From an uncultured bacterium (GTDB lineage Bacteria > Fidelibacterota > Marinisomatia > Marinisomatales > JAHJCW01), in NCBI GenBank assembly GCA_964634215.1, contig CAZWKR010000001.1, forward strand, positions 128,603 to 192,602: DNA of 64,000 nucleotides, given 5' to 3'. Made by a program: the position numbers and the translations under genes. Positions 41,441 through 43,014 of the stretch are shown here, piece by piece (within the stretch, counting starts at the first letter, position 1; every line of letters begins with the position of its first letter). The notes under the pieces were generated by a model, which saw only the letters and a program-made list of their open reading frames with translations, did no database searches and had not been told where the DNA came from.

Positions 41441-42022
41441 TTAAACTGTTGAAATTTGGGAGCGAATAAATATCAATATCAAGATTAACAATATATTTAA
41501 AAGAGTGCTTTTTTCGTGTCTTAATACTTTTTTAATACTTAACGGTTCTTGAATGGTACCGCCCTTCCATGGAGTTAATCGTGGTAAAAGTGCAGGAACA
41601 TTATTACAATATATTAGATACTCTTCATCAAACTTTTTACTCAAAGTTTCTTGTTCTAATGAGATAATCAATGAATATTGTATAATAAAAAATGTTAAAG
41701 TAAGAAATAATATAAGCCAAAGATTTGATCCTCCTGCGATAAAAACTATTCCGGAAAAATTTATCATATTTCCAAGGTAGAGGGGGTTGCGTAAATAAGC
41801 AAATGGTCCAGAAGAGCAAAGCTTTGGAGCGCCTACTTTTATTGTTCGAGTTCTTCCACCGGCATAACTCACAGCCCAAACTCTGATAGTTTCACCTATT
41901 GCTAATAATATAAAACCAAAATAAATAACAGGCTGATATGGGTTTGAAAAATATAACAGAATTAGAACTAATGGAATTGGAGTATAGCTACGATTTTTAA
42001 AAAAAAACTGTCGAATATCCAT
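41441..42022 (-). CDS. Isoprenylcysteine carboxyl methyltransferase (ICMT/Ste14)-family membrane methyltransferase
   Basis: 193 aa and multi-TM. SGPFAYLRNPLYLGN ... EQETLSKKFDEEYLIYCNNVP matches the ICMT/PEMT family pattern. 1-nt overlap with the upstream oxidoreductase gene. Confidence 0.7.
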   Translation of the reverse strand: MDIRQFFFKNRSYTPIPLVLILLYFSNPYQPVIYFGFILLAIGETIRVWAVSYAGGRTRTIKVGAPKLCSSGPFAYLRNPLYLGNMINFSGIVFIAGGSNLWLILFLTLTFFIIQYSLIISLEQETLSKKFDEEYLIYCNNVPALLPRLTPWKGGTIQEPLSIKKVLRHEKSTLLNILLILILIFIRSQISTV

Positions 42023-43014
42023 TAATGAACATCTTCTATTATCATTTTCTGAATTTTAGTAGCTACTTCCAAAGCATCTCTACCTGCTTTACCATCTACA
42101 ATTGGTTTAGACTTTCCTTGGATTGATTCAATGAAATTAGTCAGCTCAAGTCGAAGAGCGTCTATTTTTTCAATTTGGGGTTTCTCGTAAACTATAGCAC
42201 GATGTCCCCCATCATTATTTAAAGGAGCTGTAACCAATGCTTTGGAGACTTTAGTATCAGAATCGATTGCACGATATACTTCAGTGAGACCCTGTAGAAA
42301 ATCAATTGTAACGTACATATCTCGCTGAAAAAACTTGAGCTTTCTAACTTTATTTTGTGCAATTCGGCTTGAGGTTAGATTGGCAACGGTACCATTTTCA
42401 AAGCGAACTCGAGCATTGGCAATATCAACTGAGTTTGTCATGATTGAAACACCACTGGCGCGTATGTTTTTCACAGGACTGTTTACTAGAGATAGAATTA
42501 TATCAATATCATGAATCATCAGATCAAGAACAACCGGAACTTCGGTACCTCGAACTGTATATGGAGCAAGCCGTTGAACTTCAATAAATTTTGGTTTTAG
42601 CTCAAAATCTTTTAATGCTAGTAATGCAGGATTCAATCGCTCAATATGTCCAACTTGAATTACAGTTCCATTTTTTTGGGTAAGGGATAGTAAGTGATCA
42701 GCTTCGACAACTGTTTTTGTTATCGGTTTTTCAATGAAGACATGTTTGCCGGTCTTTATACAGAGTTCGGCAATTTTTGCATGCTGAGTTGTTGGAGTTA
42801 CTATTGATATGGCATCACAAGCAGAAAGTAAGTTGTCAATGCTGTTATAAGATTTTGAATTATGTTGTTTTGCTATTTCATTGGCGCGTGCAGTATCTAA
42901 GTCGTAAACCCCTACGAGGTCTGTGCCGGGCAATGATGCAAAATGCTTCACATGATGTTGACCTAAATGACCAACGCCTATTACTCCTACCTTTACCTGT
43001 TTTGATGTATTCAT
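42022..43014 (-). CDS. Gfo/Idh/MocA-family NAD(P)-dependent oxidoreductase (GnnA-like candidate)
   Basis: 330 aa. N-terminal Rossmann fold KVGVIGVGHLGQHH and the EKP motif (VFIEKPI). Located in the lipid A gene block. Confidence 0.75.
   Translation of the reverse strand: MNTSKQVKVGVIGVGHLGQHHVKHFASLPGTDLVGVYDLDTARANEIAKQHNSKSYNSIDNLLSACDAISIVTPTTQHAKIAELCIKTGKHVFIEKPITKTVVEADHLLSLTQKNGTVIQVGHIERLNPALLALKDFELKPKFIEVQRLAPYTVRGTEVPVVLDLMIHDIDIILSLVNSPVKNIRASGVSIMTNSVDIANARVRFENGTVANLTSSRIAQNKVRKLKFFQRDMYVTIDFLQGLTEVYRAIDSDTKVSKALVTAPLNNDGGHRAIVYEKPQIEKIDALRLELTNFIESIQGKSKPIVDGKAGRDALEVATKIQKMIIEDVH

Follow-up and report, generated by a model that had tools for sequence, protein, structure and literature searches.

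A gnnA orthologue and a predicted lipid A methyltransferase in the lpxB operon of a SAR406 bacterium

What kind of lipid A would be made by a bacterium whose lpxB operon opens with genes for a Gfo/Idh/MocA oxidoreductase and a membrane methyltransferase? The question is raised by a 64,000-nucleotide stretch of DNA from an uncultured SAR406 bacterium (assembly GCA_964634215.1, contig CAZWKR010000001.1, positions 128,603 to 192,602), referred to here as the window. SAR406 is an abundant ocean phylum that also goes by the names Marinimicrobia, Neomarinimicrobiota and Fidelibacterota, and the genome is assigned to it by the source names of close homologues. The chemistry of lipid A determines how charged and how permeable the outer membrane is, how well it withstands cationic peptides and how the immune receptors of animals recognize it. 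We lean toward the view that the operon, consisting of gnnA, the methyltransferase gene, lpxB, lpxJ and lpxK, assembles a lipid A that contains 2,3-diamino-2,3-dideoxyglucose (GlcN3N) and may be methylated. The five genes are as follows.

43014-42022, minus strand: gnnA orthologue, a Gfo/Idh/MocA protein of 330 amino acids and predicted UDP-N-acetylglucosamine (UDP-GlcNAc) 3-dehydrogenase (GFO_IDH_MocA, PF01408, 102 bits)
42022-41441, minus strand: LmtA-like membrane methyltransferase of the ICMT/PEMT fold, 193 amino acids (PEMT 43 bits, ICMT 23.6 bits)
41416-40268, minus strand: lpxB, lipid A disaccharide synthase (Pfam LpxB 322 bits; TIGR00215 284 bits, over cut-off)
40263-39619, minus strand: DUF374 / LpxJ-family late acyltransferase (Pfam DUF374 54 bits)
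39619-38603, minus strand: lpxK, tetraacyldisaccharide 4'-kinase (Pfam LpxK 275 bits; TIGR00682 205 bits, over cut-off)

Identity of the GnnA orthologue

A PDB sequence search with the 330-residue protein returned entry 7bvj with an E value of 3.8e-62 (213 bits, residues 7-322), and the runner-up scored 65 bits. Acidithiobacillus loci, fetched by a motif from the 7bvj alignment, have the gene order lpxA, Gfo/Idh/MocA gene, DegT gene, lpxB. The Acidithiobacillus ferruginosus protein encoded in the slot between lpxA and the DegT gene matches 7bvj at 664 bits, and 7bvj is therefore the GnnA with which Acidithiobacillus carries out the proven pathway to GlcN3N. In the passage of PMC8036547 that cites Sweet et al. 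(2004), GnnA of Acidithiobacillus ferrooxidans is given as a UDP-GlcNAc 3-dehydrogenase, and the GlcN3N pathway as proven.

The window protein resembles A. ferrooxidans GnnA (7bvj/7bvk) in its Gfo/Idh/MocA fold and motifs, its setting in an lpx operon and its group in the tree, with roughly 45% identity, estimated by eye, across the first 240 residues. It differs from 7bvj by an insertion of 15-20 residues near residue 255. The gene settings differ as well: the window gnnA follows ychF and precedes lpxB-lpxJ-lpxK, with no adjoining aminotransferase gene, whereas gnnA of Acidithiobacillus lies between lpxA and gnnB. Residues G13, G15 and G18 (nucleotide-binding glycines of the Rossmann GxGxxG), E95-K96-P97 (EKP) and D164, H168 and D169 (DLMIHD) are invariant in 15 orthologues; the GxGxxG, EKP and Asp/His motifs have a catalytic role in Gfo/Idh/MocA proteins. 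On NF040723, the equivalog model for archaeal UDP-GlcNAc 3-dehydrogenase, the window protein reaches 205 bits and falls below the cut-off of 450. This cut-off is uninformative for bacterial GnnA, because a true Acidithiobacillus GnnA reaches only 162 bits.

In a quick maximum-likelihood tree, the window protein falls in an 18-row GnnA group on a long stem, supported by a Shimodaira-Hasegawa-like approximate likelihood-ratio test (SH-aLRT) value of 96, with the outgroup sample being small. Besides the window protein, the members of the group are seven orthologues from SAR406, three GnnAs of Acidithiobacillus and seven homologues of other phyla, the latter mostly encoded beside lpxA. Five Gfo/Idh/MocA paralogues of the same genome fall outside it, so that the clustering with unrelated sugar dehydrogenases that could have been expected of a misassigned protein was not seen. 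Of the 41 genomes of the order, 40 yielded a gnnA orthologue, as did 107 of the 121 genomes sampled across the phylum. Beyond the phylum, the order lpxA-gnnA occurs in Aminicenantes, Acidobacteriota and Chrysiogenales, and in at least five further phyla gnnA is a neighbor of lpxA or lpxB.

The homology to 7bvj, the grouping in the tree and the lpx linkage agree with the original prediction of a GnnA-like oxidoreductase. We conclude that the 330-residue protein is, by sequence, a clear orthologue of GnnA, and that it very probably has GnnA activity.

Operon structure and gene order

All five genes lie on one strand and are closely packed. The stop codon of gnnA (TAA) and the start codon of the methyltransferase gene (ATG) share one base, and plus-strand positions 42020-42024 read CATTA (coding TAATG), which bears out the 1-nucleotide overlap described in the original prediction. 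Gaps of 24 and 4 nucleotides separate the methyltransferase gene from lpxB and lpxB from the DUF374 gene, respectively, and the DUF374 gene overlaps lpxK by 1 nucleotide. Open reading frames and Pfam and NCBIfam matches likewise agree with the placement of the pair between ychF and lpxB, on the strand of lpxB-DUF374-lpxK. DUF374 corresponds to LpxJ, a family of late acyltransferases that act on lipid A (PMC6148475). Leaving aside the methyltransferase, whose role is predicted, each gene between ychF and the end of lpxK therefore belongs to lipid A synthesis. The position of gnnA at the head of lpxB-DUF374-lpxK is found in 20 of 20 loci from relatives of the same order and also on metagenome contigs. 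As this gene order recurs so widely, the arrangement is not due to chance. A scan for promoters and terminators gave counts not above those in shuffled sequence.

The window belongs to contig C1 of a 2.34-Mb genome (34% G+C, 39 contigs), and the genes that flank the operon are the following.

44750-44160, minus strand: fabA, the neighbor upstream of ychF (TIGR01749 244 bits)
44157-43057, minus strand: ychF, ending 42 nucleotides upstream of gnnA (TIGR00092 466 bits)
After lpxK, minus strand: S41 protease gene, then exbB and exbD

The gene ychF is syntenic in several relatives. On contig C15 of the same-genus relative G004 (locus L076), the S41 protease gene and lpxK each appear as two adjacent open reading frames, probably as a result of frameshifts or assembly errors there.

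An lpxB-linked clade of membrane methyltransferases

The AlphaFold2 model of the 193-residue protein is all-helical and of high confidence (mean predicted local distance difference test score 94, predicted TM-score 0.89). Among named folds it matches Ma-ICMT best (4a2n; Foldseek probability 1.00, TM-score 0.55), and eukaryotic ICMT (5v7p) is also among the top matches. The C-terminal cofactor-binding region, residues 66-149, aligns with that of Ma-ICMT and eukaryotic ICMT/Ste14p; the identity is about 20%. According to this model, the protein has an ICMT/Ste14-type membrane fold. The PEMT (PF04191) match covers residues 33-133 and exceeds the gathering cut-off of 25 bits; PEMT is a broad domain family that gives no indication of substrate.

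Metagenome contigs were scanned with a small alignment and 80 loci were kept, with counts made only for loci with enough flanking sequence. Where the methyltransferase shares at least 45% identity with the window protein, 16 of 17 loci have lpxB directly downstream and 12 of 15 have gnnA directly upstream. At 37-45% identity the corresponding counts are 22 of 26 for lpxB and 0 of 24 for gnnA, and below 37% identity they are 1 of 26 and 1 of 24. Pooled at 37% identity or more, lpxB directly follows the methyltransferase gene in 38 of 43 informative metagenome loci. A quick maximum-likelihood tree, to whose method the support values apply, recovered a set of 39 rows (SH-aLRT 86) that contains the window protein and 36 of the 37 lpxB-linked rows. 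The set contains two well-supported subclades, one of the SAR406 type with gnnA (SH-aLRT 96) and one of 23 rows without gnnA (SH-aLRT 98).

In the subclade without gnnA, the eight low-G+C contigs for which the upstream gene order was read carry a gene of about 240 codons just upstream of methyltransferase-lpxB-DUF374-lpxK; its product is a HAD phosphatase by Pfam in both contigs scanned (one low-G+C, one of 59% G+C). Nine metagenome contigs (L164, L166, L172, L175, L177, L178, L182, L184 and L187), of which eight have a G+C content of 30-37%, share the module SMC, the 240-codon gene, methyltransferase, lpxB, DUF374, lpxK and pyruvate phosphate dikinase, again without gnnA. Proteins with type IX secretion system sorting tails are encoded nearby, which suggests that the module without gnnA comes from an organism of the Fibrobacterota-Chlorobiota-Bacteroidota (FCB) group.

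Within the phylum, the methyltransferase gene is patchy and was found in 47 of the 121 genomes sampled. Most families of this order have it, as do several other classes, in which it also adjoins gnnA; among the same 121 genomes, neither the remaining orders of the class nor a streamlined family with 1-Mb genomes yielded it. Two species belonging to the genus of the window, G004 (L076) and G005 (L077), have gnnA followed directly by lpxB, and the same order without the methyltransferase gene occurs in two other families (L071, L079, L073 and L078). Such clean presence or absence between sister species is the pattern expected of a decoration enzyme that is optional while the operon around it is fixed.

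An exhaustive search yielded 988 clusters at an E value of 1e-10 or better. Three relatives (P0237, P0256 and P0306; 461-619 amino acids) have a GT19 domain of the TIGR03492 type, which is LpxB-related, fused to the methyltransferase domain. The fusion partner was rejected as LpxB proper, being of the TIGR03492 type and 22% identical to the LpxB of the window. Four other relatives (P0133, P0140, P0147 and P0198) carry two methyltransferase domains in tandem.

The original prediction described the 193-residue protein as LmtA/ICMT-like. In the passages of PMC10248169 and PMC4402001 that cite Boon Hinckley et al. (2005), LmtA of Leptospira interrogans is given as the lipid A Kdo2 1-phosphate O-methyltransferase (Kdo, 3-deoxy-D-manno-octulosonate). 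We made the comparison with LmtA through the NCBIfam model TIGR04571, which is the top NCBIfam match of the window protein (71 bits, residues 5-184 on profile positions 12-199); two other PEMT-type genes of the genome reach 19 bits at most. LmtA is also an NCBIfam hit in 147 of the top 150 relatives, none of them near the cut-off (best E value 4.5e-36). Like LmtA, the window protein is an ICMT/Ste14-type membrane methyltransferase with a predicted lipid A role, and the alignment between them begins in the N-terminal membrane helices and extends to residue 184. Unlike LmtA, it has 193 residues against the 252 positions of the profile, belongs to a separate lpxB-linked clade and, in the genus of the window, reads EQ in place of the EE of the cofactor motif. 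On these grounds we judge it reasonably probable that the 193-residue protein is a methyltransferase directed at lipid A.

Contrary evidence and alternative explanations

Several observations weigh against this reading of the operon, and they are given here together with the explanations that they favor. The cut-off of TIGR04571 is 325 bits, and the window protein falls short of it by a wide margin; it is therefore not an LmtA equivalog. Some relatives without lpxB linkage score as high on the same model. The lpxB-linked proteins mostly match it over the whole length (41-74 bits) and the unlinked ones mostly over the catalytic half only (37-77 bits), a difference that is modest and does not decide the matter. 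The earlier LmtA/ICMT-like label is a fair description, in that LmtA is the best curated match and the gene is linked to lpxB; as an analogy and as a lead the LmtA-like reading has support, as family membership it has none.

A rival explanation is that the methyltransferase serves envelope lipid synthesis with a target other than a lipid A phosphate, be it a Kdo or uronic acid carboxyl on lipid A or core, the head group of a phospholipid or a carrier of the polyprenyl-phosphate type. Consistent with such a target, the best Pfam match is PEMT and not ICMT, the ICMT-fold superfamily methylates carboxylates, amines and thiols, 40 of the 150 top relatives touch the model of MddA (methanethiol methyltransferase), the LmtA score is low and shared by members without lpxB linkage, and the domain fused in the three relatives above is LpxB-related rather than LpxB itself. 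The window protein itself has no match to the MddA model, and MddA was rejected as its identity. On the two models for isoprenylcysteine carboxyl methyltransferases, it falls under the cut-offs (PF04140, just under, 23.6 against 24 bits; NF040696, 20.9 against 160 bits); the latter score, about 21 bits, compares with 71 for LmtA. We know of no prenylated protein substrates in bacteria of this kind. Against a non-phosphate target stands also the linkage specifically to lpxB-lpxJ-lpxK, the steps that make or handle the 1- and 4'-phosphates. We regard this explanation as unlikely, but it is the one that has to be taken most seriously. Methylation of a phosphate in particular is proposed tentatively. 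Methylation of this kind has been described without an lmtA-like gene: in Mesorhizobium loti the lipid A 4'-phosphate is partly methylated, and no lmtA-like gene was found in a 2012 paper (PMC4103559).

A second set of contrary observations concerns the aminotransferase that would follow GnnA. As the original prediction noted, no gnnB lies in the window, and the four strong DegT genes of the genome are all on other contigs, none of them near gnnA.

Contig C26: DegT gene in a dTDP-deoxysugar cluster with rmlA, rmlB and a 2,3-dehydratase gene; match to Acidithiobacillus GnnB 115-142 bits
Contig C21: DegT gene beside glycosyltransferase genes; match to Acidithiobacillus GnnB 147-152 bits
Contig C11, 74323-75453: DegT gene in an O-antigen-like cluster (two GT2, sulfotransferase, methyltransferase, GT4, Wzy-like); match to Acidithiobacillus GnnB 188-207 bits at 34-36% identity, the best of the four
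Contig C27, 13886-15109: stand-alone DegT gene beside TldD/PmbA; match to Acidithiobacillus GnnB 160-187 bits

The C26 and C21 genes were rejected as gnnB, the former lying in a dTDP-deoxysugar cluster and both giving the weakest matches to Acidithiobacillus GnnB. The C26 cluster itself (C26:8000-19460, L042) encodes RmlB, RmlA, a flippase, an NDP-hexose 2,3-dehydratase, a Gfo/Idh/MocA protein and the DegT protein, which points to a surface glycan that contains a 2,6-dideoxy or 3-amino deoxysugar. The best match, C11, stands in a genus-specific O-antigen-like cluster; it leans to the LegC family (337 bits) and is conserved in the genus only. The C27 protein scores lower and is conserved at 56-81% identity across most of the order, with an NCBIfam profile (PseC 224, LegC 220 bits) like that of true GnnB (PseC 233, ArnB 212, LegC 209 bits). 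Three families that carry gnnA yielded no C27 gene, and the relative G014 has the C27 gene but no gnnA. Reciprocal searches in Acidithiobacillus did not tell C11 and C27 apart. Two relatives have gnnA in the lpxB operon and no DegT gene detected: the best DegT score is 19 bits in G035 (0.9 Mb, 98% complete) and 34 bits in G033. In these two genomes either the DegT gene is unassembled or transamination is carried out by another enzyme class. In one metagenome locus (L158:3875-5308), a 477-codon gene for a class-V aminotransferase follows gnnA and the methyltransferase gene at the place where lpxB normally stands. This enzyme was rejected as an alternative GnnB, since its homologues in the genome look like the SufS/IscS type and the adjacency was seen once. 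By sequence, then, no DegT protein of the genome is a clear orthologue of GnnB. The search of the whole genome for DegT aminotransferases that was proposed along with the original prediction thus did find candidates, four in number, none of which is assignable as GnnB.

LpxA gives no sign of the expected sugar either. The other pathway genes are lpxD-lpxC-fabZ-lpxA on contig C17 and an LpxH-like gene on contig C3, and a single lpxA passes the cut-off in the genome. Compared with known structures, its product scores 191 bits with LpxA of Leptospira and 205 bits with that of E. coli, with Bacteroides LpxA about the same, so that the scores show no sugar selectivity; to our knowledge there is no validated sequence signature for it. 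Immediately after lpxA, in the string lpxD-lpxC-fabZ-lpxA-dxr, lies an open reading frame of 239 codons (L041:8042-8761; C17:17041-17760) with no Pfam match at an E value of 1e-5 or better. Our literature search found no paper on SAR406 lipid A and no lipid A chemistry for any member of the phylum, which now has one cultured representative, Fidelibacter multiformis (PMC11652737).

These results would fit an ordinary glucosamine (GlcN) disaccharide backbone, with the GnnA product destined for another glycan or not coupled to a transaminase. The missing linked or clearly orthologous GnnB, the occurrence of gnnA in G035 without any DegT match, and a single LpxA without a selectivity signal all point that way. 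In opposition to this, gnnA keeps its place as first gene of the lpxB operon throughout the order and adjoins lpxA or lpxB in the other phyla mentioned above, it is nearly phylum-wide, unlike variable glycan clusters, and Acidithiobacillus, in which the pathway is proven, also has gnnA in an lpx context. An ordinary backbone is thus improbable in our view. The FCB group offers a relative for comparison: Capnocytophaga canimorsus has a chemically proven GlcN3N-GlcN hybrid backbone together with gnnA, gnnB and two lpxA genes (PMC3342949). The window genome resembles it in carrying gnnA and differs in having one lpxA over the cut-off against two, and in having no assignable gnnB. On this balance, GlcN3N is likely to be present in the lipid A of the SAR406 bacterium.

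The last contrary observation is found in the methyltransferase itself. In Ste14p, RxPxY ... EE is the conserved cofactor motif. The window protein has R78-N79-P80-L81-Y82 and E123, and position 124 (codon at 41651-41653), which is Glu in 102 of 104 family representatives, is Gln. The E-Q-E form recurs in 40 sequence clusters, full length and free of stops, whose identity to the window protein is 63-87%; Q124 is therefore a conserved lineage variant and not a sign of decay. That the enzyme is weakened or being lost in this genus, with no effect on lipid A here, is suggested by the E124Q change and by the two species of the genus that lack the gene, yet it is the least probable of the explanations considered, and very improbable, because retention of the variant in full-length form points to purifying selection, E125 next to Q124 could substitute, and the remaining conserved residues are intact.

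Predicted pathway and significance

The reading that we favor, a GlcN3N-containing and methylated lipid A, can be put as a scheme. It builds on what the genes are, on their synteny and patchy distribution, and on the clade structure and fold, and it is predictive in its substrates, its aminotransferase and its methylated group. GnnA would oxidize UDP-GlcNAc at C3 with NAD+ to UDP-3-keto-GlcNAc, which a DegT-type aminotransferase encoded elsewhere, with C27 as our first guess and C11 as our second, would convert to UDP-GlcNAc3N. LpxA, LpxC, LpxD, the LpxH-like enzyme, LpxB and LpxK could then turn UDP-GlcNAc3N into a lipid A with amide-linked acyl chains at position 3, position 3' or both. The 193-residue protein, a putative integral-membrane methyltransferase dependent on S-adenosylmethionine and presumably co-translated with GnnA and LpxB, would act at the inner membrane on lipid A or a late precursor. 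Its most likely reaction would be O-methylation of a phosphate, as by LmtA in Leptospira. A "Leptospira-like lipid A" stays a prediction, because no DegT protein is assignable as GnnB and the LmtA cut-off was not reached.

The phylum-wide occurrence of gnnA predicts amide-linked lipid A as a trait of the lineage, and the missing GnnB points to one pathway step without an assigned enzyme. The methyltransferase clade, which stands beside lpxB across deep divergence, provides a concrete candidate gene. It is possible, though we put it no more strongly, that this lpxB-linked clade of the ICMT fold is an unrecognized and widespread family of lipid A methyltransferases, joined in SAR406 with a diamino-sugar backbone that occurs throughout the phylum and depends on a non-orthologous or as yet unrecognized aminotransferase. 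If so, methylated lipid A, documented in Leptospira and reported as partial in M. loti, would be common in SAR406 and in further uncultured lineages, among them bacteria that rank with the most abundant in the dark ocean.

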